Assembly (NCBI GenBank): GCA_043811395.1 | Contig: JBDRNE010000115.1 | Location: forward strand, 12,212 to 76,211 | Length of the DNA: 64,000 bases | Direction of reading: 5' to 3' | Origin: Candidatus Omnitrophota bacterium | Lineage (GTDB): Bacteria > Omnitrophota > Gorgyraeia > Tantalellales > Tantalellaceae | In this document: one piece after another, positions 1,075 to 63,607 of the stretch | Numbering within the stretch: position 1 is the first letter of the stretch | Layout of the letters: the number at the start of each line of letters is the position of its first letter | Notes under the pieces: model-generated | Databases searched by the model: none | Told to the model about the DNA's origin: nothing | What the model saw: only the letters and a program-made list of their open reading frames with translations | Translations under genes and position numbers: made by a program

Positions 1075-1611
1075 ATGGCAAACAAAAAATTCAGAAGGAA
1101 ACGTTATATTATACTTTTGGGGTTTCAGCTCAAATATATTTTGTATATCCTGCTATTTATTTACATTGGTGCGGCAGTTGCCGGATATACCGTTTATTGG
1201 ACAACCTGGGTAACTTTGGGCGAGAAGTTGGCAAATGTGTATCCGCGAAGCAGGCTGATTTATATATTTCATGACGCGAATATGACTCTTCTCATTAGAA
1301 TGTTGATTATTACCCCTATTTTTATTCTTATCGGGATTTTTTTGTCACATAGAATAGCCGGCCCAATCTACAGGATAAGTAAGTATCTTGATGCATTAAA
1401 AGTTGGTGACTATTCACATGATGTAACTTTGAGAAAGAAAGATGAATTAAAAAATTTGGCCGGAAAATTGACGGAATTATGCCGAAAATTGCGTGAAGAC
1501 AAAGAAAAGAATAAGAACATAATAAAAGAAATAGAAGGCTTGCTTGATAAAAGCGAAATCCCTTTTGATGTCTCTGAAAGGATCAAAACAGAAGTGCGCC
1601 GGATTTCTTAA
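1075..1611 (+). CDS. Small membrane protein with two TM helices and a HAMP-like domain, possibly a truncated sensor
   Basis: The ATG at 1075 follows a GGAGGA RBS. Two hydrophobic helices are present, followed by a HAMP-like amphipathic segment (IAGPIYRISKYLDALKVGDYSHDVTLRKKDELKNLAGKL). There is no output domain. The stop codon directly abuts the left inverted repeat of the RAYT element. Confidence 0.55.
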   Translation: MANKKFRRKRYIILLGFQLKYILYILLFIYIGAAVAGYTVYWTTWVTLGEKLANVYPRSRLIYIFHDANMTLLIRMLIITPIFILIGIFLSHRIAGPIYRISKYLDALKVGDYSHDVTLRKKDELKNLAGKLTELCRKLREDKEKNKNIIKEIEGLLDKSEIPFDVSERIKTEVRRIS

Positions 1612-2382
1612 ATAGGGACGTCACCCATTTAATTAAAAAAACAAAACGTAGAATAATCATTTAATCATAGGTCGTCCTCTGGGGCGTGATGTCAGGGGCC
1701 GACCTAATTTATTTTCCAACATTTTAAAAAAAGTTTTATTTCCTAGAGGTTTTCCCAATAAGGTATGTTTGTTAATTGTTTCTATCAATTCTTTTGAAGG
1801 TTCTAGTTTTAGATCTTCTCTCCAGTTTTGGGGGTCCAATACTTTTTTACTTGGTGATAAAGAAATAATTCCTTGTTCGATGTTGAGATGATCTCTCGCA
1901 CTAGACCATTTCCAATCCTCGAGGTTTTTGACAAGTTGTGCCCGTATGGGATTAAGCTCAATATATTGTGTTACAATATAACTATGTTGTTCATCAAGCG
2001 GACAAGAAAAAAAACGACTTTGCCAGAGATGTCCTACTTTTTTATATTTTTTATTGAAATATTGAGTATAACACATTTGGGTATAATTGAATGTCTTGGA
2101 AAAAGAGTCGGCTTGTTTCGGGATAGCTTTAACATGGATGTGGTTAGGCATAAGAGCGTATGAAGAAATATCGAGATAATATTTAGTTTTATGTTTTTCA
2201 AGTAGTGTAAGATATCGGATGTAGTCCTCATCATCAAAAAAAGTGGTAGTTTTATTGTTTCCTCTCTGAGTTATATGATGGGGAACTCCTAAAACAACAA
2301 TGCGTGCAGTTCGAGGCATAATGGCTCCTTTCGTAATTTTAACAAAATAGGTGACGTCCCTATTTATACGTCCCTATTTATA
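1611..2382. mobile_element. IS200/RAYT-like single-gene element bounded by perfect inverted repeats
   Basis: The left repeat AATAGGGACGTCACC (1611-1625) and the right repeat GGTGACGTCCCTATT (2350-2364) are exact reverse complements and bracket a Y1 transposase gene. A 14-bp tandem duplication CGTCCCTATTTATA lies at 2355-2368 and 2369-2382. Confidence 0.7.
1657..2319 (-). CDS. IS200-like / REP-associated tyrosine (Y1, HUH) transposase
   Basis: It carries the HUH-type motif (MPNHIHV) and a downstream region (GHLWQSRFFS) that presumably holds the catalytic Tyr. The ATG at 2319 follows AAGGAG. It is a single gene between inverted repeats. Confidence 0.8.
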   Translation of the reverse strand: MPRTARIVVLGVPHHITQRGNNKTTTFFDDEDYIRYLTLLEKHKTKYYLDISSYALMPNHIHVKAIPKQADSFSKTFNYTQMCYTQYFNKKYKKVGHLWQSRFFSCPLDEQHSYIVTQYIELNPIRAQLVKNLEDWKWSSARDHLNIEQGIISLSPSKKVLDPQNWREDLKLEPSKELIETINKHTLLGKPLGNKTFFKMLENKLGRPLTSRPRGRPMIK

Positions 2383-3910
2383 CCCATAAGTTTTTGTCTA
2401 GAGAACGGTATCCGATTGCCTCGGAAATGTGAGGCGTGTCTATAGTTTCTGAATTTGCCATATCGGCGATAGTTCGTGATATTTTTAGGATTTTGTCATA
2501 TGCTCGTGCGCTAATGCCGAGTTCAAGTATTGCTTTTTTTAGTAATGCTTCAGCTGTCGATGTTAGCGGGCAAAACATTTCAATGTCTTTTTGGGACATA
2601 TAAGCATTATAAGCAGAGGATCTTTTTTTGTTTTTAAAACGATTGTTTTGCAACTGTCGGTTTGCGGTTACCCGTTTTTTTATGTTCTCTGAATTTTCAC
2701 CCGTTCTCTTTTTTGATAAATCTGTGTAATCAAGACGGGGCACTTCAAGGTGTAAATCAATTCTGTCTAAAAGAGGTCCAGATATTTTTGAAAGATAACG
2801 TTGTATCTGGTAAGGTGAACATTGGCATTTTTTTAATTTGTCCGTAAAATAGCCGCATGGGCAGGGGTTCATGGCGGCGATAAGAACAAAACGTGATGGA
2901 TATTGGAGTGAACGCTGAGCTCTTGCTATTGTTATTTTTCCGGATTCAAGGGGTTGGCGCAGAGTTTCTAAGACGTCTCGGCGGAATTCCGGAAACTCAT
3001 CGAGAAAAAGAACTCCGTTATGCGCGAGGCTAATTTCACCTGGAAGCGGGTATGATCCGCCTCCTGCCATTGCCGCGTATGAAATCGTGTGGTGTGGAGA
3101 ACGAAAAGGCCGTTCTCTTATTAAGCCGGAATTTTTTGTTTGTCCGGTTACGCTGTAAATATTAGTTGTTTCGAGCGATTCCTTGAGGGAAAGATCCGGC
3201 AGGATAGAAGGGAACCGTTTTGCCAGCATGCTTTTTCCGGAACCCGGCGGGCCGAGGAGAAGAACATTGTGATTTCCGCTTGCGGCAACTTCAAGCCCAC
3301 GTTTTATATGGTGTTGACCCTTTACATCTTTAAAATCTAATTCGGTTTGAGAATTAGTATTAAAATATGTGTTTTTATTTATAACTGTTTGTGTTAAAGG
3401 TGTGATTTTTTTTAAGTGATCAATTACTTCGCGAAGGTTTCCTGCGCCATATACTGATATGTTATCTATGTTGGCGGCTTCAAGCGCGTTAGCGGTAGGT
3501 AGTATAAATGTTTTAAATTTGGTGTTTAAAGACATGGCTATTGGTAAGGCGCCCCGGAAATGTTTAAGTTTTCCGTTTAGGGAAAGTTCTCCGCAGAACA
3601 ATATGTTGTCAAGTTCTTCCTGTTTAAGCGCGGAAGTGGCTCCAAGTATGCCCAACGCTATTGGCAGGTCAAATCCTACGCCTTCTTTTTTTATGTCAGC
3701 CGGGGAAAGATTAACTGTTATTCTTGTTTCAGGAAAAGCAAATCCTGAATTTTTGATGGCGGAACGAATTCTGTTCCGACTCTCCCTTATTGAAGCATCG
3801 GGAAGGCCTACTACTAAAAAAGAAGGCATACCGTTTGTAACATCTACTTCAACGTCAACAGCCTGAGCGTTTACACCAATGACATATCCGGAATTTACTT
3901 TAGCAAGCAT
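2378..3910 (-). CDS. comM: Mg-chelatase-like AAA+ ATPase YifB/ComM
   Basis: It has a Walker A motif (GPPGSGKS), an LFLDEFPEF Walker B region and a ComM-type C-terminus. The ATG follows AAGGAG. The stop codon lies inside the second copy of the 14-bp tandem repeat. Confidence 0.9.
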   Translation of the reverse strand: MLAKVNSGYVIGVNAQAVDVEVDVTNGMPSFLVVGLPDASIRESRNRIRSAIKNSGFAFPETRITVNLSPADIKKEGVGFDLPIALGILGATSALKQEELDNILFCGELSLNGKLKHFRGALPIAMSLNTKFKTFILPTANALEAANIDNISVYGAGNLREVIDHLKKITPLTQTVINKNTYFNTNSQTELDFKDVKGQHHIKRGLEVAASGNHNVLLLGPPGSGKSMLAKRFPSILPDLSLKESLETTNIYSVTGQTKNSGLIRERPFRSPHHTISYAAMAGGGSYPLPGEISLAHNGVLFLDEFPEFRRDVLETLRQPLESGKITIARAQRSLQYPSRFVLIAAMNPCPCGYFTDKLKKCQCSPYQIQRYLSKISGPLLDRIDLHLEVPRLDYTDLSKKRTGENSENIKKRVTANRQLQNNRFKNKKRSSAYNAYMSQKDIEMFCPLTSTAEALLKKAILELGISARAYDKILKISRTIADMANSETIDTPHISEAIGYRSLDKNLWV

Positions 3911-3931: not shown

Positions 3932-4387
3932 TTACAACATTGAGCTTGTTATTATGTTTTTTAAATGTTTAAGTATTTGAAAATTTTTTTGTGAATCCAA
4001 TTTAATGGCAATACCGTCAATGCGGTAATAGTCCATTGATAATTTGTGTTGTTTAAGATAAAACAAACAATTATTCAATATATGTTTTTGTTTAGTTGTT
4101 GTTATCGAGCTAAACGCGTTTCCAAATTTTTCCGATGTACGGGTTTTTATTTCAAAAAATACAATAAAATTAGCGTGTTGCGTGACTATATCAATTTCTC
4201 CGAAAGGGGTTCTGAAGTTTTTGTTTAAAATTTTATACCCATTTAAAATCAAAAATGTTTCCGCGATTTTTTCACCTAACTTACCGATTTGGTTGAGTGA
4301 GTTGATAGATGTAGGTGTATTGAAAATGTGATTTAAATAGTTAGATGGTTTTAAAAAGCGGTGTATTTTTAACCCGTTTATTTTCAT
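3932..4387 (-). CDS. YraN/UPF0102 family endonuclease-like protein
   Basis: The C-terminal half matches the UPF0102 pattern (GEIDIVTQ...IVFFEIKTR). It overlaps the sigma-factor gene by 4 nt. Confidence 0.6.
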   Translation of the reverse strand: MKINGLKIHRFLKPSNYLNHIFNTPTSINSLNQIGKLGEKIAETFLILNGYKILNKNFRTPFGEIDIVTQHANFIVFFEIKTRTSEKFGNAFSSITTTKQKHILNNCLFYLKQHKLSMDYYRIDGIAIKLDSQKNFQILKHLKNIITSSML

Positions 4388-9426: not shown

Positions 9427-9433
9427 AGAAATT

Positions 9434-9550
9434 GGGGTCAGCCCTTGAAATGTGAAACTTGCTAATTTATTTACCTTAAGTTTCACATTTCAAGGGCTGA
9501 CCCCAAAGTACACTTTTCAAGGGCTGACCCCAAAGTACACCAAAGTACAT
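9434..9550. repeat. Long palindromic repeat element R1: a 27-bp stem hairpin plus tandem partial copies
   Basis: GGGGTCAGCCCTTGAAATGTGAAACTT (9434-9460) pairs with its reverse complement at 9478-9504. The direct repeat CAAGGGCTGACCCCAAAGTACAC occurs at 9491-9513 and 9518-9540. A second copy of the element lies at 39298-39395. Confidence 0.8.
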
Positions 9551-9576: not shown

Positions 9577-9605
9577 TTGACAGAATAAATCATAGTGTAT
9601 ATAAT
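9577..9605 (+). promoter_or_regulatory. Consensus sigma-70 promoter upstream of lysS (TTGACA-17-TATAAT)
   Basis: TTGACA at 9577-9582, a 17-nt spacer, and TATAAT at 9600-9605. Confidence 0.6.
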
Positions 9606-11121: not shown

Positions 11122-11133
11122 TTTACATATGTT

Positions 11134-11211
11134 GTATGTCGTACATAGCATATCGCCTCAAAAGCCTTAAATTCTATATACGATGTACGACATACGATAC
11201 ACGACATACGA
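11134..11211 (+). promoter_or_regulatory. Inverted repeat plus tandem direct repeat immediately upstream of lolC/E (operator-like)
   Basis: GTATGTCGTACAT (11134-11146) pairs with ATGTACGACATAC (11183-11195). The direct repeat ACGACATACGA occurs at 11187-11197 and 11201-11211. Confidence 0.4.
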
Positions 11212-11216
11212 CAATT

Positions 11217-12428
11217 ATGTGGACATTTTTTCTAAGTGTAAAATATTTTTTCTCGAAGCGAAAAGAAGGCATGATTTCTTTGATCAGCGGAATTTCTGTC
11301 TCCGGAGTTGCTCTAGGTGTTGCCGCTCTCATAATAGTTTTGTCCGTAATGAATGGATTTGACTCAGAGGTTAAAAGCAAAATAATTGGTACTTACGCGC
11401 ATGTGATCATAATGCGGGAAGACGGTATAACAGATTATGCTTCTTTGGTCTCGCGAGTGGAGGCAGTTTCTGGGGTAGAACATGCTTCAGCTTTTGTTAC
11501 TGGGCAGGCCATCATCAAAAAGGGTGAGGCTATAAGCGGCATTATCCTAAAAGGTATAGATCCTCAAAAAGAGTCCGAAGTTACAAAGCTTATCAGTTAC
11601 ACGGGAGAATCTGGAGACAATCTGGGACCGGGAACGATAATTCTTGGAACAGAATTGTTGAAAAACGAAAATATTAATATTGGCGATATGATTGAAATTT
11701 TTGTGCCATATTCAGCCGTAGATTTTAGTAGGACTAAAGTAAAAGTTGTCGGCACTTTTAATTCGGGGCGGTATGATTATGACGCAAATATGGCTTTGGT
11801 TGATGTTAAAACCGCGCAACAGACTTTCAGATTGGATAATGCCGTTACAGGCATAGGTGTTAAGTTGACGGATGCAAACCGAGCTTATGCAATAAAAAAA
11901 CACTTTCAGTCTATCTTGGGATATCCCTATATGGTCAAAACGTGGATGGATCTTGACCGCAATCTGGTTTCCGCGCTTGCGTTGGAGAAAAAAATGATGT
12001 TTGTTATACTTGGTCTTATTATCATGGTGGCATGTTTTAATATTTCGGGGTCACTCATTATGATGGTGATGGAAAAAACAAGAGACATTGGCATTTTAAA
12101 AGCAATTGGCGCGAATGGCCGAGGTATAAGTTTGGTTTTTATTTTGCAGGGAATGTTGATAGGTGTATCAGGAGTAACCTTAGGGAGTTTTGCGGGATTA
12201 TACATCGCGACGAAAATTAATGTTGTAAGTAATTTTATAGAAAAAATTACGGGTGTGGCGGTGTTTCCGAGTGATGTTTATTATTTTACCGAAATACCAG
12301 TAGAGATAAAAAATAGTGACATTTTTTTAATTATTTCAATTGCTTTGTTTTTGTCAATAGCCGCGGGTATTTATCCGGCTTGGAAAGCGTCAAGATTGGA
12401 TCCGGTAGACGCGATTAGGTATGAATAA
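11217..12428 (+). CDS. lolC: Lipoprotein-release ABC permease, LolC/LolE (FtsX/MacB) family
   Basis: It has TM1 plus a periplasmic domain plus a C-terminal FtsX 3-TM bundle. The N-terminus (MWTFFLSVKYFFSKRKEG) matches the LolC/E start pattern. The track start at 11136 lies inside the upstream repeat structure. Confidence 0.8.
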   Translation: MWTFFLSVKYFFSKRKEGMISLISGISVSGVALGVAALIIVLSVMNGFDSEVKSKIIGTYAHVIIMREDGITDYASLVSRVEAVSGVEHASAFVTGQAIIKKGEAISGIILKGIDPQKESEVTKLISYTGESGDNLGPGTIILGTELLKNENINIGDMIEIFVPYSAVDFSRTKVKVVGTFNSGRYDYDANMALVDVKTAQQTFRLDNAVTGIGVKLTDANRAYAIKKHFQSILGYPYMVKTWMDLDRNLVSALALEKKMMFVILGLIIMVACFNISGSLIMMVMEKTRDIGILKAIGANGRGISLVFILQGMLIGVSGVTLGSFAGLYIATKINVVSNFIEKITGVAVFPSDVYYFTEIPVEIKNSDIFLIISIALFLSIAAGIYPAWKASRLDPVDAIRYE

Positions 12429-15816: not shown

Positions 15817-15915
15817 CCAGAGAATAGGCCTTTCAATAGCAAAATAAGGCAAGGATTATTATAAGATCTAACGTGAAAAACACTGGATCAAAGATATGAA
15901 GTTTTGATATGTTTC

Positions 15916-15937
15916 GGACAGGCACAGGGACCTGTCC
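15916..15937 (+). promoter_or_regulatory. GC-rich hairpin GGACAGG-N8-CCTGTCC in the 174-bp mcsB-clpC spacer
   Basis: The stems are perfect 7-bp pairs. They are embedded in the 13-mer TTTCGGACAGGCA, which also occurs at 37039-37051. Confidence 0.4.
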
Positions 15938-15990
15938 CTACATCAATAAATCAGCTAATCGGTTAACCAAAGAAGTAGGAGGAGTAAAGA

Positions 15991-18441
15991 ATGCCAGCAT
16001 TTAACAGATTTACAGAAAGGGCGAGAAAAGTTATTCTTTTAGCTAAAGAAGAAGCAAAAAATCTTAACCATGATTATATCGGGACGGAACATGTCTTATT
16101 GGGCTTGATTAAAGAAGGCGAAGGTGTAGCCGCCGCGGTATTGACTAGTCTTGGTATGGATTCTGATAAAATTCGCAGTGAAGTTGAAAAACTTGTTCAG
16201 CCGGGTTCGTCAAAAATTACGGATAGAGATATACCTTTTACGCCGCGCGCAAAGAAAGTTATTGAACTTGCGATGGATGAAGCGCGTAATCTTGGACATA
16301 ACTATATCGGAACAGAGCATATATTATTGGGTCTTATACGCGAAGGCGATGGCGTGGCAAGCCAAGTTCTCTTGAATGTGGGGCTTGATCTTAAAACTGT
16401 GAGAGATGAGGTTTTGAGTCTGTTGGGATCATCGGTGCCCGGATATAGCGCGCTTTCAGACTCGGACACGAAACGTAAAAAACGGACGAAAACTCCGGCT
16501 TTGGATTCTTTCGGCAGGGATCTTACGGAAATGGCAAGCCAAGATGAGTTGGATCCTGTGATTGGTAGAGATAAAGAAATACAAAGGGTTATTCAGATTC
16601 TAAGTAGGCGTAAAAAGAATAATCCTATTCTAATAGGGGAAGCCGGTGTTGGAAAAACTGCTATTGTTGAAGGGTTGGCGCAGAAGATAGTCGCGGGAGA
16701 TATTCCTGAAGTCTTGAAGGGGAAACGTCTTTTAATCCTGGATTTAGCAATGATGATTGCTGGGACAAAATATCGCGGACAGTTTGAGGAGCGGATAAAA
16801 GCTGTTATGAAAGAAATAAAGGACACACCTGAGGTTATGGTTTTTATTGATGAAATCCATACTCTTGTGGGAGCGGGCGGCGCGGAAGGCGCGATAGATG
16901 CGTCAAATATTTTAAAACCTTCCTTACAAAGAGGAGAAATTCAGTGTATTGGAGCTACGACATTAGATGAATATCGAAAAAATATTGAGAAAGATCCGGC
17001 TTTGGAAAGAAGGTTTCAGCCGGTAACGGTTGACCCTCCAAGCGTTGAAGAAACTATAAAAATATTAAATGGGTTACGGGATAAATATGAGGCTCATCAT
17101 AAGATAAAATTTTCAGATAAAGCGTTGGAAGCCGCGGCGAAAATGTCGGATCAATACATTAGCGGTCGGTTTCTGCCGGATAAAGCCATTGATCTTATTG
17201 ATGAAGCCGGATCCAAAGCTAAACTGTCAACGATGGTAATGCCTAAAGAGTTAACTGAAGAAGAAAAAAAAATAGAAGAAATTAAACGCGAAAAAGAAGA
17301 AGCAGTTAAAGAGCAGGATTTTGAAAAAGCCGCGCGGGTCAGAGATTCGGAACGTAAAGCTAGGGAGGAGCTGGAACAGAAAAAAGTTGAATGGAAAAGC
17401 GGAAAGAATAAACAAGATGTTATAGTTTCCGATGAAGATATAGCGTCTATTGTTTCAGATTGGACGGGAATTCCGTTAATTAAAGTTGAAGAAAAAGAAT
17501 CAGAAAAATATCTCAGGTTGGAAGAGGGGTTAAAAGCGCGAGTAGTCGGCCAGGATGAGGCTATAACAGCTATCGCTCACGCGGTCAGACGTTCACGCGC
17601 GGGAATAAAGGATCCCAATCGGCCTATAGGAACTTTTATTTTTATGGGGCCTACGGGCGTAGGAAAAACGTTATTAGGCAGGAAACTGGCTGAAATAATG
17701 TTCGGGGATGAGGATGCTATTATCCAAATCGATATGTCTGAATACATGGAGAAGTTCAATGTGTCCAGATTGGTCGGTGCGCCTCCCGGGTATATTGGGT
17801 ATGAGGAAGGCGGCCAGTTAACAGAAAAAGTAAGAAGACGTCCTTATGCGGTAGTGCTTCTTGATGAAATTGAAAAAGCTCATCCGGATGTTTTTAATAT
17901 ACTTCTTCAGCTTTTAGATGAAGGCCGTCTTACGGATTCTTACGGCAGGAAGGTGAGTTTTAAAAATACAATACTCATTATGACGTCCAATATCGGCGCG
18001 AATTTACTTAAAAAAACAGGGGCGATAGGATTTAAAACTCAGGAGGAAGAAGAAGGGTATAAAGAAATGAAGGGAAGGCTTTTGGAAGCCGTAAAGAAAA
18101 CTTTTAAACCGGAATTTTTGAATAGAGTTGATGATGTTATTGTGTTCAGAAGTTTGACAAGAGCCGATCTGAAGCAGATAGTCGAGATAGAAATAAAAGA
18201 AGTGGCGGAACGTTTAAAAGAAAAAAGCATTGAGTTAATTCTTGATAGCAAGGCGAAAGTTTTTCTTATTGAAAGAGGGTTTGATAAGATTTTTGGAGCC
18301 AGACCCCTTAAAAGGATTATTCAGCGATATCTTGAAAATCCTTTGGCTGAGGAAATTTTAGCGGGAACATTTAAAGACGGGGCTAAAATTAAAGTAACCG
18401 CGCAAAAAGGAAAAACGGAATTAAAATTTGTAAAGGGATAA
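15991..18441 (+). CDS. clpC: Clp ATPase ClpC (class III stress-response AAA+ chaperone)
   Basis: Two Clp_N repeats are followed by AAA-1 (GEAGVGKT), a middle UVR motif, AAA-2 (GPTGVGKT) and a ClpB_D2-small domain. The RBS is AGGAGGA. Confidence 0.95.
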   Translation: MPAFNRFTERARKVILLAKEEAKNLNHDYIGTEHVLLGLIKEGEGVAAAVLTSLGMDSDKIRSEVEKLVQPGSSKITDRDIPFTPRAKKVIELAMDEARNLGHNYIGTEHILLGLIREGDGVASQVLLNVGLDLKTVRDEVLSLLGSSVPGYSALSDSDTKRKKRTKTPALDSFGRDLTEMASQDELDPVIGRDKEIQRVIQILSRRKKNNPILIGEAGVGKTAIVEGLAQKIVAGDIPEVLKGKRLLILDLAMMIAGTKYRGQFEERIKAVMKEIKDTPEVMVFIDEIHTLVGAGGAEGAIDASNILKPSLQRGEIQCIGATTLDEYRKNIEKDPALERRFQPVTVDPPSVEETIKILNGLRDKYEAHHKIKFSDKALEAAAKMSDQYISGRFLPDKAIDLIDEAGSKAKLSTMVMPKELTEEEKKIEEIKREKEEAVKEQDFEKAARVRDSERKAREELEQKKVEWKSGKNKQDVIVSDEDIASIVSDWTGIPLIKVEEKESEKYLRLEEGLKARVVGQDEAITAIAHAVRRSRAGIKDPNRPIGTFIFMGPTGVGKTLLGRKLAEIMFGDEDAIIQIDMSEYMEKFNVSRLVGAPPGYIGYEEGGQLTEKVRRRPYAVVLLDEIEKAHPDVFNILLQLLDEGRLTDSYGRKVSFKNTILIMTSNIGANLLKKTGAIGFKTQEEEEGYKEMKGRLLEAVKKTFKPEFLNRVDDVIVFRSLTRADLKQIVEIEIKEVAERLKEKSIELILDSKAKVFLIERGFDKIFGARPLKRIIQRYLENPLAEEILAGTFKDGAKIKVTAQKGKTELKFVKG

Positions 18442-23253: not shown

Positions 23254-23307
23254 ATGGGTGGCGGATGACAACTCTCATTTAATCATTTCGCCGAAGGTAA
23301 AATTGTT

Positions 23308-23329
23308 ATCCCGGACGAAGAGCCGGGAT
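23308..23329 (+). terminator. Candidate intrinsic terminator after cysE
   Basis: The ATCCCGG/CCGGGAT stem is followed by an AT-rich tract. Confidence 0.35.
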
Positions 23330-23517
23330 CTATTTAAAATGTGAAATTTTATTATTAAATCATCGTCGAGAGGTTTTATTGAAAATTCGATTGTAAAAAA
23401 ACCGTGTCCGGCTTAAACAGGTTCTCGTCCGCCAGAAACAGTCTGCGGAACTCGCCTGACACAAAAACCAAACGCCTTTTGCATGAATGTAGATACAATG
23501 AAAATAGCTGAAGAATA

Positions 23518-37012: not shown

Positions 37013-37128
37013 AAGGGAAGAGGCTTGTGTTTGTTTTGGTACATAGATTTTCGGACAGGCAAGAGCCATTTGGTTTATGCGTTCGGTTCAAACTTGTTTC
37101 TAACTGTCAGGCGGGTTGGTGAAATCTT

Positions 37129-39295: not shown

Positions 39296-39297
39296 AT

Positions 39298-39395
39298 GGG
39301 GTCAGCCCTTGAAATGTGAAACTTAGCATAAATAAATTGTCAAGTTTCACATTTCAAGGGCTGACCCCAAAGCTCAGGGCTGACCCCAAAGCTCC
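39298..39395. repeat. Long palindromic repeat element R2: the second copy of the 27-bp stem hairpin plus tandem partial copies
   Basis: The arms at 39298-39324 and 39342-39368 are identical to those of R1. The loop is the inverse of the R1 loop. The direct repeat GGGCTGACCCCAAAGCTC occurs at 39358-39375 and 39377-39394. Confidence 0.8.
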
Positions 39396-39417
39396 TGGAG
39401 AATTAAGGAAGAAGGAT

Positions 39418-40542
39418 ATGATGACAAGTTACAGGCCGACATGGGCGGAAATAAATTTGAACGCGATTAAACATAATCTAAACTGTATAAGGGGTGTTAT
39501 TAGCGACAAGGTTAGCATTCTCGCGGTGGTTAAAGCCAATGCCTACGGCCATGGCATATGTCCTGTCAGCAAAGTTCTTGTGGAAGAAGGTGTGGATTAT
39601 TTAGGAGTGGCGACGGTCGATGAAGCATTAACTTTAAGAAAAGCAGGTATTTTAGTGCCCATTCTTGTTTTAGGGGCTGTTCTTAAAGAAGAGGCAAAAG
39701 CGGCTGTAAAGCATGATATTACACTTACTTTATGTAGTCGTGCGCTTTTACAAGTTTTTGCGGATATTGCGGACGAAACAAATATGAAGCCGAAAGTACA
39801 TGTTAAAATTGATACAGGAATGGGAAGAATAGGAATATGGCATGAGGAGGCAGTTCATTTCATGCGGGAAGTGTATTTAATGAAAAAAATTGAAATGGAA
39901 GGGATCTATACGCATTTTTCTTCTGCCGCAAGAGATAAAATGGTAACACAACTGCAAATAGAATATTTCGATAAAGTTTTAGAAGATTTAGAGAAAAGGG
40001 AAGGCATTTGTGTGAAATACCGGCATTCTGCTAATAGTATCGCGGTAGTTGATTGGAAATCGTCTCATTTGAATATGGTGCGTCCGGGTATTTTGCTTTA
40101 TGGCGTATACCCGAAAGAAGATTTTCGAAAAGAACTTAAGCTTAATCCGGTTATGAGTCTGAAAACCAAAATAGTGCATTTAAAAGAAGCGCCCCCGGGC
40201 AGAGCGATAAGTTATGGGAGAACCTATATAACACAGAAGTGGACGAAGATTGCTACAATTCCAATAGGGTACGCTGACGGATATGGGCGCATTCTTTCGA
40301 ATAAAGCGGAAGCTTTAATTCGGGGTCAATATGTGAGAATTGTGGGTATGGTTACAATGGATCAGACGCTTTTGGATGTCGGTCATATTGAAAATGTTCA
40401 AGAGGGCGATGAAGTGGTTTTGGTTGGCAGACAAGTTAATTCAGAAGTTAATATTGAAAAAATAGCGAAACTTGCGGGAACCATACCTTACGAGATTTTA
40501 TCCGCAATAACAGATAGAGTTCCGAGGGTTTATACTCGCTAG
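39418..40542 (+). CDS. alr: Alanine racemase
   Basis: The PLP-Lys motif is AVVKANAYGHG. The ATG at 39418 follows AGGAAG. The track start at 39316 would place the N-terminus inside the R2 hairpin repeat. Confidence 0.9.
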   Translation: MMTSYRPTWAEINLNAIKHNLNCIRGVISDKVSILAVVKANAYGHGICPVSKVLVEEGVDYLGVATVDEALTLRKAGILVPILVLGAVLKEEAKAAVKHDITLTLCSRALLQVFADIADETNMKPKVHVKIDTGMGRIGIWHEEAVHFMREVYLMKKIEMEGIYTHFSSAARDKMVTQLQIEYFDKVLEDLEKREGICVKYRHSANSIAVVDWKSSHLNMVRPGILLYGVYPKEDFRKELKLNPVMSLKTKIVHLKEAPPGRAISYGRTYITQKWTKIATIPIGYADGYGRILSNKAEALIRGQYVRIVGMVTMDQTLLDVGHIENVQEGDEVVLVGRQVNSEVNIEKIAKLAGTIPYEILSAITDRVPRVYTR

Positions 40543-40784
40543 TCTTTAAGTGTTTTTATTCGAAAGTGTATTTGTTTTTTAATCGAATATACAAACTGAG
40601 TTTTAGTGTGATCATGTAGTGAATGGGAAGAGCTATACAAACTCCCTTTGAAAAAAAAGGGGGGTAAATTAAAACAAATCTCTCTTAATTTTCCTTTTTT
40701 GAGGTGAGAAATTGAGGGGTGTTCCTTTTTTCTAAATGGATACGTTGTAGGGGAAACTGCTGAATTTGAAAAACTAAAACCTGG

Positions 40785-40812
40785 TTGACAAAGCTTTTCA
40801 ATATGCTATACT
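40785..40812 (+). promoter_or_regulatory. Consensus sigma-70 promoter upstream of ilvB (TTGACA-16-TATACT)
   Basis: TTGACA at 40785-40790 and TATACT at 40807-40812, followed by a ~110-nt leader. Confidence 0.5.
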
Positions 40813-42616: not shown

Positions 42617-42652
42617 TAAGTATATGTAACGCAAATTTAAGGAGATAAGGGT

Positions 42653-44143: not shown

Positions 44144-44179
44144 GGGGTCAGGTTTTGACATTTGTCAAAACCTGACCCC
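44144..44179 (+). terminator. Perfect 17-bp stem hairpin GGGGTCAGGTTTTGACA/TGTCAAAACCTGACCCC after ilvC (terminator or REP-like element)
   Basis: The palindrome begins 10 nt after the ilvC stop. It shares the GGGGTCAG...CTGACCCC termini with R1 and R2. Confidence 0.55.
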
Positions 44180-44227
44180 CTGGCAAATTTGAATTTTGTC
44201 ATTTGTCATTAATTAAAGGGACGTATT

Positions 44228-49377: not shown

Positions 49378-49569
49378 ATACACATTTTAGATTCCGGATA
49401 CCCTGTTCCTCTTCGACAAGTTCCTGTCGATATCACTCGAGACAGGCAGGACAGGCAGGCCTGGTAAAGGGTTTCGGGATGACAATTCGGGGAATTATTT
49501 TTTGGAATGGGCATAATAACGATACGAGTAGCAGGAAAGGGTTAACGTAATAACGAAAGTGAGGGTTTA

Positions 49570-58939: not shown

Positions 58940-59074
58940 CCCGGGCAATTTCAACTTGTAGTTGAAGTCGAGGCGGGCATGTTGCACGTGGCAGGTAACA
59001 CGTATCTTTTTATCTCGAGAGTGGGAAGGAAAGCCGGGCACGCAATGTGTGGCCTGCGTAACTTAGTATAAAAT

Positions 59075-62308: not shown

Positions 62309-62417
62309 CAAAATTTACCGCCAAAAGCGGGTCCGCCTCCGGTGGAAAATGTGAAAATGTTGTAGGGGAGGCCCTTGCGTCCTCCCCTAGTAGTGAATGG
62401 TAGATTGTGGATGAAAA

Positions 62418-63449: not shown

Positions 63450-63607
63450 AAGGGGGTGCAAGATTCAGTTGCTTTGTGTACCCGTATCAAACAGGTCCTC
63501 GGCTTCTAAAGTGGCCTGTGAAACTCGCCGGGCATACAAAGCAAGTGAATCTTTTGTCAAAAAGGTGTTTTGTGCAACGTGGAGCCTGTAACGTGTTACG
63601 CTAAATT

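Follow-up and report, generated by a model that had tools for sequence, protein, structure and literature searches.

Hairpin-forming intergenic repeats as the probable source of GC-rich spacer islands in a Candidatus Omnitrophota genome

Several spacers between genes of a Candidatus Omnitrophota bacterium are conspicuously rich in G and C and share short exact words, and the question they raise is whether these islands are regulatory sites, structured RNAs or repeats. The stretch concerned (the window) comprises 64,000 nt, positions 12,212 to 76,211 of contig JBDRNE010000115.1, from the metagenome-assembled genome (MAG) GCA_043811395.1; ~76 kb of sequence of this species was examined. An initial annotation, made from the sequence alone, had listed islands ahead of clpC, thiL, cysS, an HD-GYP gene and glycosyltransferase genes of families GT4 and GT9, and had offered three explanations: binding sites for a common regulator, small structured RNAs, or degenerate copies of a small repeat. 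The last of these was borne out, the islands being cores or arms of families which recur in other spacers of related genomes. With a probability of roughly 0.7, the islands are labile elements resembling repetitive extragenic palindromes (REPs) and bacterial interspersed mosaic elements (BIMEs), and they belong to, or are left over from, several families of short intergenic repeats that form hairpins. They are a mixture of REP-like hairpins, one two-copy repeat of ~68 nt and worn arms of composite palindromic elements that are common in the clade.

The window has a GC content of 38% with a strong positive GC skew, and nearly all of its genes lie on the plus strand. No tRNA genes were found in it and no Rfam family reached its gathering score. 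Within the list of spacers of at least 30 nt, the flagged ones have 39–50% GC against 21–36% in ordinary spacers, which confirms the GC richness first ascribed to them. For comparison, loci L124, L130 and L131 (56 kb) of a sister genome, GCA_043812935.1, span window positions ~6.4–64 kb with 83.6% nucleotide identity over 52.8 kb aligned; amino acid identity is 95% for ClpC, 95% for IlvC and 69% for GT4. Loci L121 and L122 come from relatives at about 70% nucleotide identity, and L136 is 20 kb from a relative at 86% ClpC identity. A same-species MAG, GCA_018814505.1, matches the window at 99.9% identity, in the islands as elsewhere, and is therefore uninformative on conservation.

Hairpins and shared words in the islands

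The following elements were recognised in the flagged spacers:

15912..15941, minus strand: GTAG-headed REP-like hairpin of the clpC island (GTAG GGACAGG tccctgtg CCTGTCC gaaa)
15941..15975, plus strand: remnant of an 8-mer tandem arm (CAGCTAAT CGGTTAAC) beside the clpC hairpin, from lag-8 self-similarity
37049..37067, minus strand: possible half copy of the clpC hairpin in the thiL spacer, 3' arm and tail only (TGCCTGTCCGAAA)
49390..49481, plus strand: long imperfect palindrome in the HD-GYP spacer, with CCTGTC / GACAGG stems and two copies of GACAGGCAG
62362..62389, plus strand: GTAG-headed hairpin GTAGGGGAGG cccttgcgt CCTCCCCTA in the GT4/GT9 spacer, with 9-bp perfect arms
23404..23470, plus strand: copy A of the ~68-nt repeat, in front of cysS (aligns to copy B at 36.9 bits)
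63469..63544, plus strand: copy B of the ~68-nt repeat, ahead of the last GT9 gene, closed by an 11+4 bp stem

Both the clpC island and the GT4/GT9 hairpin form stem-loops of REP type with a GTAG head, and their length is within the 20–40 bp usual for REPs. The former has a perfect 7-bp stem and an 8-nt loop (minus-strand form GTAGGGACAGG-loop-CCTGTCC); the latter, with a 9-nt loop, is the TAGGGGAGG/CCTCCCCTA hairpin already annotated, present at 62363–62389, and related heads occur at 40744 (GTTGTAGGGGA) and 34845 (AGTAGGGGTGG). A match to the clpC hairpin at 24/25 nt was found elsewhere in the sister genome, in another spacer (L124 4870–4905). About seven copies of this GGACAGGC...GCCTGTCC hairpin, or about 7 per 56 kb, were found in other spacers there (L124 3157, 4870, 9800 and 17288; L130 ~2160, a variant; L131 11114 and 13827); these spacers are unrelated, and twice the hairpin follows straight after a stop codon. 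REPs of this kind carry an unpaired GTAG or CGTC at one end, and the GTAG head is present at 15941 (minus strand), 62362 (plus strand), L124 17288 and 9840, and L130 ~2160. The more distant L121 and L122 have a GTAG family of their own (GTAGGGGCACATTGCATGTGCCCGC), with 15 GTAGGGGCAC units in 15 kb of L122 arranged in clusters, including one at each contig end.

These sequences are largely confined to spacers. All four window copies of TAGGGAC are intergenic (three in the flanks of a transposase gene, one in the clpC hairpin), and an unbiased k-mer count found GACAGGC in 4 copies in 3 window spacers (0.1 expected) and CCTGTCC in 5 copies in 5 sister spacers (0.03 expected), intergenic enrichment having p values of 1e-6 to 1e-10. 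The strongest enriched k-mer, CTGACCC/TGACCCC, belongs to a palindrome family that had not been listed before. In the aroK/HD-GYP spacer the reiterated word was recovered as GACAGGCAGG, twice in tandem at 49441 and 49450 (period 9 x2.1 in Tandem Repeats Finder, TRF). It forms part of a palindrome of ~90 nt folding at −31.7 kcal/mol, with a closing stem of GAUUCCGGA.ACCCU / AGGGUUUCGGGAU, which lies within about 155 nt missing from the sister genome.

The significance of the shared words was assessed by composition-aware local alignment of all pairs of 32 spacers on both strands, with 60 dinucleotide shuffles. The best score per shuffle averaged 22.5 +/- 1.6 bits with a maximum of 27.8. Composition-aware scoring was needed to separate spacer pairs from shuffles, since under plain match/mismatch local alignment the annotated pairs were indistinguishable from them. 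The cysS/GT9 pair reached 36.9 bits over ~68 nt, about 9 standard deviations beyond the null mean, and its similarity is real: the two spacers hold two copies of one ~68-nt repeat. The first of its two annotated blocks, AAACAGGT[TC]CTCG, stands at 23415 and 63489 as reported, and the second proved shorter, being common only as AACTCGCC (23449, 63522) with GAACTCGCC confined to the first copy.

It could be held against these results that a handful of GC-rich spacers would share such words by chance. By the same alignment, neither the pair with the 13-mer TTTCGGACAGGCA (21.7 bits) nor the 58940/63450 pair (19.3 bits) stands out from the shuffles. The 13-mer, which is the 3' arm and tail of the clpC hairpin, was confirmed at 15912 and in the thiL spacer, where it spans 37049–37061 and not 37039–37051; in a longest-common-word test weighted by base composition, 4.7% of 300 shuffles equalled its information content (p~0.05), so that by itself it is of marginal significance. 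At thiL it lacks both the 5' arm and the GTAG head, and the sister genome aligns through its first five bases before the alignment ends at 37053. The words of the 58940/63450 pair are all present as annotated (among them GTGGCCTG at 59049 and 63511, and GCCGGGCA at 59033 and 63527), in an order which differs between the two spacers and is not collinear; the similarity is judged real because both share a period-7 structure. The score of the cysS/GT9 pair, the near-identical clpC hairpin in the sister genome, the k-mer enrichment and a period-7/-8 structure that mirrors intact arrays of relatives all speak against chance, which is highly improbable as a general explanation. Chance has been refuted where the clpC hairpin, the 68-nt pair and the 7-mer arrays are concerned; the thiL 13-mer and the 8-mers GTGGCCTG and GCCGGGCA may still be due to it.

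Turnover of the islands between related genomes

If the islands were regulatory, the orthologous spacers of the sister genome would be the place to look for them. Their state there is as follows:

clpC upstream: hairpin kept and rearranged, with ~35 nt inserted in the loop and the 8-mer arrays expanded
cysS upstream: 119 nt, with GTAGGGGACAGGCATGCCTGTCCC in place of the 68-nt element
HD-GYP upstream: only 35 nt, just window 49543–49569 aligning
GT4-GT9 fusion upstream: CGTGCAA x5.3
GT4/GT9: GGACAGGCTCCGGTGCCTGTCC straight after the stop codon, in place of the window hairpin
last GT9 upstream: GGTTAGCC x6.6 and an unrelated hairpin
asnS-macB: the 24/25-nt match to the clpC hairpin of the window, whose own asnS-macB spacer has no GC hairpin

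All of the GC islands are thus absent, replaced or rearranged. The sister alignment covers 22/264 nt of 23254–23517, 27/192 of 49378–49569, 4/135 of 58940–59074, 4/109 of 62309–62417 and 21/158 of 63450–63607. Twelve AT-rich spacers, on the other hand, align to the sister over their full length, and sigma-70-like promoters are kept in it (TTGACA-N17-TATAAT at 9577–9605; TTGACA-N16-TATACT at 40785–40812). Between genomes of 83.6% identity, then, the islands differ while promoters and ordinary spacers persist, and presence or absence varies among related genomes as it does for REPs. Since the islands are labile and the neighbouring regulatory segments are kept, readings based on a common regulator or a conserved riboswitch are unsupported.

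The proposal of a common regulator would make the shared motifs operators of one transcription factor co-regulating clpC, thiL, cysS, the HD-GYP gene and the glycosyltransferase genes, and it draws on the recurrence of exact GC-rich words ahead of several genes, always on the coding strand, and on the enrichment of GACAGGC in spacers. However, these genes have no common function, different pairs of islands carry different motifs, the same hairpin sits in unrelated sister spacers and twice directly after a stop codon, and, apart from the rearranged clpC copy, no island is kept at its orthologous sister spacer, where the promoter segments are. A single motif ahead of functionally linked genes and conserved at orthologous promoters was not found, and a single regulon is extremely improbable. 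Readings of GTGGCCTG...AAC and TGCAAC/TGAAAC as sigma-54 and extracytoplasmic function (ECF) sigma promoters were considered by eye and rejected, the spacings being a misfit and the motifs unconserved.

It should also be noted that an inverted repeat at 15885–15911 in the mcsB-clpC spacer (GGATCAAAGATATGAAGTTTTGATATG) adjoins the island and is kept in the sister, and that a partial copy lies beside the hairpin in the sister asnS-macB spacer (L124 ~4925). Two readings are conceivable, a heat-shock operator and a component of some larger repeat unit. A CtsR-operator reading of GGATCAAAGATATGAAGTTTTGAT was considered for this segment, which is outside the island.

The suggestion of cis-regulatory structured RNAs or small RNA genes concerns chiefly the ~68-nt element. 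Both copies have a closing stem, lie in sense orientation and stand 48–64 nt upstream of a start codon, and copy B folds far better than its shuffles (−35.1 kcal/mol, z −5.45). Copy A does not fold better than chance (z −1.84); the consensus fold, for which only two distinct copies are available, is weak (−7.2 kcal/mol, one compensatory pair), and no convincing structure common to both copies was found. Rfam gave no relevant match, whether with E<=10 for the cysS spacer or with E<=1 for the whole window. Neither the sister (cysS; L131 12191–12303 for GT9) nor L122 has the element in its orthologous spacers, and a search allowing mismatches found no third copy in about 250 kb of related loci. 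A scan of the genome collection for AACAGGTYCTCG-N12-40-AACTCGCC returned at least 120 stretches, and those among the matches listed were all chance occurrences in GC-rich coding DNA. Since the sister lacks the cysS, GT9, HD-GYP and thiL islands or has other sequence in their place, the retention expected of riboswitches was not observed either, and an origin of the islands as structured RNAs is very unlikely. The 68-nt element is a true repeat but remains their least understood part.

Tandem arrays and composite elements

The remaining motifs lead from hairpins to tandem arrays. The features concerned are:

58975..59010, plus strand: decayed tandem 7-mer array TTGCACG TGGCAGG TAACACG, from lag-7 self-similarity
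63568..63604, plus strand: decayed 7-mer array TTTTGTG CAACGTG GAGCCTG TAACGTG TTACGCT, from lag-7 self-similarity
62318..62345, plus strand: GC-rich palindromic core CCGCCAAAAGCGG-GT-CCGCCTCCGGTGG, from a pattern search with <=2 errors
11130..11213, plus strand: composite element without a GC core in the asnS-macB spacer, from TRF and the sequence

The segments bearing TTGCACGTGG...GTAAC are marked by period 7. Self-similarity at lag 7 is 0.59 in 58975–59010 and 0.50 in 63568–63604, against <=0.25 at other lags in both, and the annotated TTGCA(A)CGTGG...GTAAC motif, which the second segment represents, is a worn tandem 7-mer array. The spacer orthologous to the first holds CGTGCAA x5.3 intact in the sister (L131 7828–7864), and 63568–63604 resembles the ends of right arms in L136 (...CCTGTAACCTGTAACGTGTTAC, ...CCTGTAACGTGTTAC). 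Beside the clpC hairpin the period is 8 (self-similarity 0.56 at lag 8 against <=0.39 at other lags), and the sister carries AACCGGCT x4.5 arrays, still intact, at the corresponding position. The element at 11130–11213 has a left arm GTATGTC GTACATA GCATATC, a spacer, and a right arm ATACGAC x5.1 (11178–11213); together with the lag-7 remnants, this array places tandem 7-mers in the spacers of the window itself.

In relatives, such arrays flank a GC-rich palindromic core as inverted arms. The 20 kb of L136 contain 8 copies of the core, 15 tandem arrays and 7 inverted array pairs, and all eight cores sit between arrays in the order 7-mer array, TT-CCGCCGGAGGCGG-nnn-CCGCCTCCGGCGG-AAA, inverse 7-mer array, a layout present in 8/10 of the spacers displayed. 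The asnS-macB spacer of L136 has ATCGTAT / ACGATAT arms flanking a core, and the sister hairpin at L124 4870 likewise sits between 8-mer arrays. Only one core of the L136 type survives in the window, at 62318–62345 just upstream of the GT4/GT9 hairpin, and hairpins embedded within arrays are represented there by remnants only. Array copy number varies at short range: in contigs with an identical ClpC protein (P0006, from the relatives at 86% ClpC identity) AGGATAA occurs x2 or x5 depending on the sample.

The halves of the L136 cores (3260, 4975, 6310, 7195, 8180, 9907, 16641 and 17467) are asymmetric. Read on the gene strand, the first half has a short central segment of several forms (GGAG, GAAG, AAAG), and the corresponding segment of the second half is nearly always CTCC; only the opposite strand preserves G-T or G-U pairing through these changes, which hints at a strand-specific hairpin or strand-biased mutation. 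GTAACG(C/T) words stand directly upstream of several ribosome-binding sites both in the window (42625–42644, 49546–49556, 59059–59066, 63586–63600) and in the sister (L130 7578–7650, 13702–13811, 14331–14365), and TGTAACG has 7 copies in 4 sister spacers against 0.24 expected. These words resemble the final units of 7-mer arms on the right-hand side.

The regular placement of these elements could also indicate that the hairpins are operon punctuation selected by the host (processing sites, insulators or arrays for nucleoid proteins) instead of selfish or mobile DNA, in which case the turnover would reflect relaxed sequence constraint on a structural role. The L136 elements, in eight of ten displayed spacers, always lie between co-directional genes with the core in one orientation, and different lineages fill the same spacers (asnS-macB, mcsB-clpC, upstream of cysS) with different sequences. 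Yet the window genome and L121/L122 have few or no arrays at the same spacers, several orthologous spacers measure only 12–50 nt, a RAYT-like transposase (described below) is present, and no terminator signature was found, and we regard host-selected punctuation as unlikely. The islands do resemble Rho-independent terminators in being GC-rich stem-loops between genes, but the island stems are not terminators because no T-run follows them: the composite elements have a T-run before the core and an A-run after it, on both strands. A search for intrinsic terminators found no site at the clpC, cysS or HD-GYP islands, and terminator counts were at chance level, with only a weak site at 58986–59003.

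A candidate transposase and known repeat systems

The window encodes a transposase with flanking repeats:

1657..2319, minus strand: Y1 (HUH) transposase of the REP-associated type, 220 aa (Pfam PF01797 Y1_Tnp, E 1.4e-11)
1609..1646, plus strand: left inverted repeat of the transposase, TAAATAGGGACGTCACCCATTTAATT..., one of its 38-nt arms
2329..2383, minus strand: right inverted repeat with an extra tandem 14-mer copy (ACGTCCCTATTTAT x2.1, TRF)

From its sequence, the protein is a candidate for the enzyme behind the repeats. It scores 59.4 bits against NCBIfam REP_Tyr_transpos (NF047646) and 20.4 bits against IS200, and its sole PDB match is 4ER8, the TnpA-REP of E. coli (E 3e-6). The 38-nt arms at 1609–1646 and 2329–2366 are 84% complementary. 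In L122 both arms stand back to back without the gene (12322–12400). A degenerate fragment of an arm (AATTAAAGGGACGTATT) was seen at 44211–44227.

Passages in three papers describe GTAG-tagged REPs, their clusters (BIMEs or REPINs) and mobilisation by REP-associated tyrosine transposases (RAYTs, or TnpA-REP) (PMC3733652, PMC2817692, PMC8266576); the definition of GTAG-tagged REPs is taken from PMC3733652, in which RAYT genes flanked by GTAG REPs or by long inverted repeats are also reported. The islands resemble this system as short GC-rich imperfect palindromes confined to spacers, several with an unpaired GTAG head, as lineage-specific families whose presence differs among close relatives, and in the company of a RAYT-like Y1 transposase in the window. 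They differ in the hairpin of relatives being embedded between inverted 7-/8-mer arrays, a layout undescribed for REP or BIME. Unlike in a REPtron, the transposase is flanked by 38-nt inverted repeats and not by the dispersed hairpin. In this respect it resembles TIRtrons, RAYT-like TIRYT transposases with long terminal inverted repeats, some of which carry GGGGWSAS (PMC3733652). The gene-less arm pair of L122 and the head GGGGTCAG of the window's other palindrome family, which fits GGGGWSAS, are further points of likeness to TIRtrons; the arms beside the gene at 1657–2319, however, read TAGGGACGTCACC and not GGGGWSAS.

Several points weigh against a kinship with REPs. REPs are defined by high copy number, tens to hundreds per genome, and in ~76 kb only one to three hairpins of the GGACAGG family (per 64-kb window) and two copies of the 68-nt repeat were counted. 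The GTAG head is absent at L124 4870 (GCAG), L131 11114, L131 13827 and the 49.4-kb island, and the thiL 13-mer may be a chance match instead of half a hairpin. The transposase falls below its NCBIfam cut-off (59.4 against 80 bits), and its flanks have only TAGGGAC in common with the dispersed hairpin. Neither a transposition event nor a target duplication nor a transcript was seen, and an effect on mRNA stability is predicted by analogy with E. coli.

If the islands are REP- and BIME-like repeats, a REP-associated Y1 transposase like that at 1657–2319 would spread the hairpin cores in single-stranded form, and the array arms would lengthen and shorten by replication slippage. In E. coli, REP and BIME stem-loops stabilise the mRNA upstream of them. 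By analogy, stem-loops transcribed within strings of co-directional genes may act as barriers to 3' exonucleases, and would then set the relative stability of upstream mRNA segments without acting as sequence-specific switches. Spread as single-stranded hairpins is established for E. coli REP and TnpA-REP in passages of PMC3479197 and PMC8266576.

The arrays, for their part, recall cyanobacterial repeats. Tandem heptamers with embedded hairpins occur in heterocystous cyanobacteria; short tandemly repeated heptamers (STRR) were reportedly described by Mazel et al. in 1990, and small dispersed repeats are said to have been described by Elhai et al. in 2008. The likeness extends to 7-mers in spacers, small GC hairpins inside arrays, many copies and lineage-specific sequences. 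The phylum is a different one, and no sequence similarity is evident by eye. In Omnitrophota the arrays are reverse complements around the hairpin, so that the whole unit is one long palindrome, unlike the cyanobacterial STRR. Intergenic heptamers and hairpins are documented in Nostoc (PMC2408588).

A search of the Omnitrophota literature found no paper mentioning repetitive extragenic palindromes, and the one paper combining Omnitrophota, intergenic and palindrome terms treats a different subject. REPs and RAYTs are already well known; what is new is the phylum and the mirror-image array-core-array layout. It is conceivable, though at present doubtful, that Omnitrophota have an undescribed class of repeat in which a palindromic core (CCGCCGGAGGCGG-nnn-CCGCCTCCGGCGG or the GGACAGGC hairpin, for example) lies between reverse-complement 7-/8-mer arrays, and which would be decayed in the window, occupy about half of the spacers in some lineages, and evolve by array expansion and contraction and by core replacement.

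The window also holds a separate palindrome family (9432–9538, 39297–39394 and 44144–44179). Two of its members are near-perfect 74-nt palindromes (TTGGGGTCAGCCCTTGAAATGTGAAACTT ... inverse), 93% alike and with extra tandem half-arms, and 44144 is a relative with a 17-bp stem; the only sub-threshold Rfam matches in the window were spurious microRNA precursors on the 39.3-kb palindrome. Open reading frame (ORF) calls at 11136–11217 and 39316–39432 run through repeats, the true starts lying near 11218 and 39433. For the macB-like gene, ATG 11218 is the most probable start and yields the 403 aa seen in the sister, and the alanine racemase start lies after the 74-nt palindrome, as its model aligns only from residue 40. 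Runs of N or contig ends coincide with arrays in L132 (6413–6510, ~16290–16390), L133 (~4120–4220) and L122 (both ends), which suggests that the repeats interrupt metagenome assemblies. About 6–7 kb upstream of the window start, L129 has 1.35 kb without a called gene (1798–3151); this stretch encodes peptide chain release factor 2 with a programmed +1 frameshift (CTT TGA C), which explains the missing call.

For annotation, the islands are best masked as repeats and treated neither as a regulon nor as riboswitches, and differences in array copy number between samples with identical proteins could serve as strain markers. For the organism, the picture is one of Omnitrophota spacers shaped by fast-evolving hairpin repeats and tandem 7-/8-mers, with a RAYT-like transposase at hand, a pattern for which the literature search yielded no account. 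Should the composite class be real, and be propagated by RAYT or TIRYT enzymes or kept for shaping polycistronic mRNA, a candidate phylum whose genetics is almost unexplored would have yielded a new type of bacterial repeat system.

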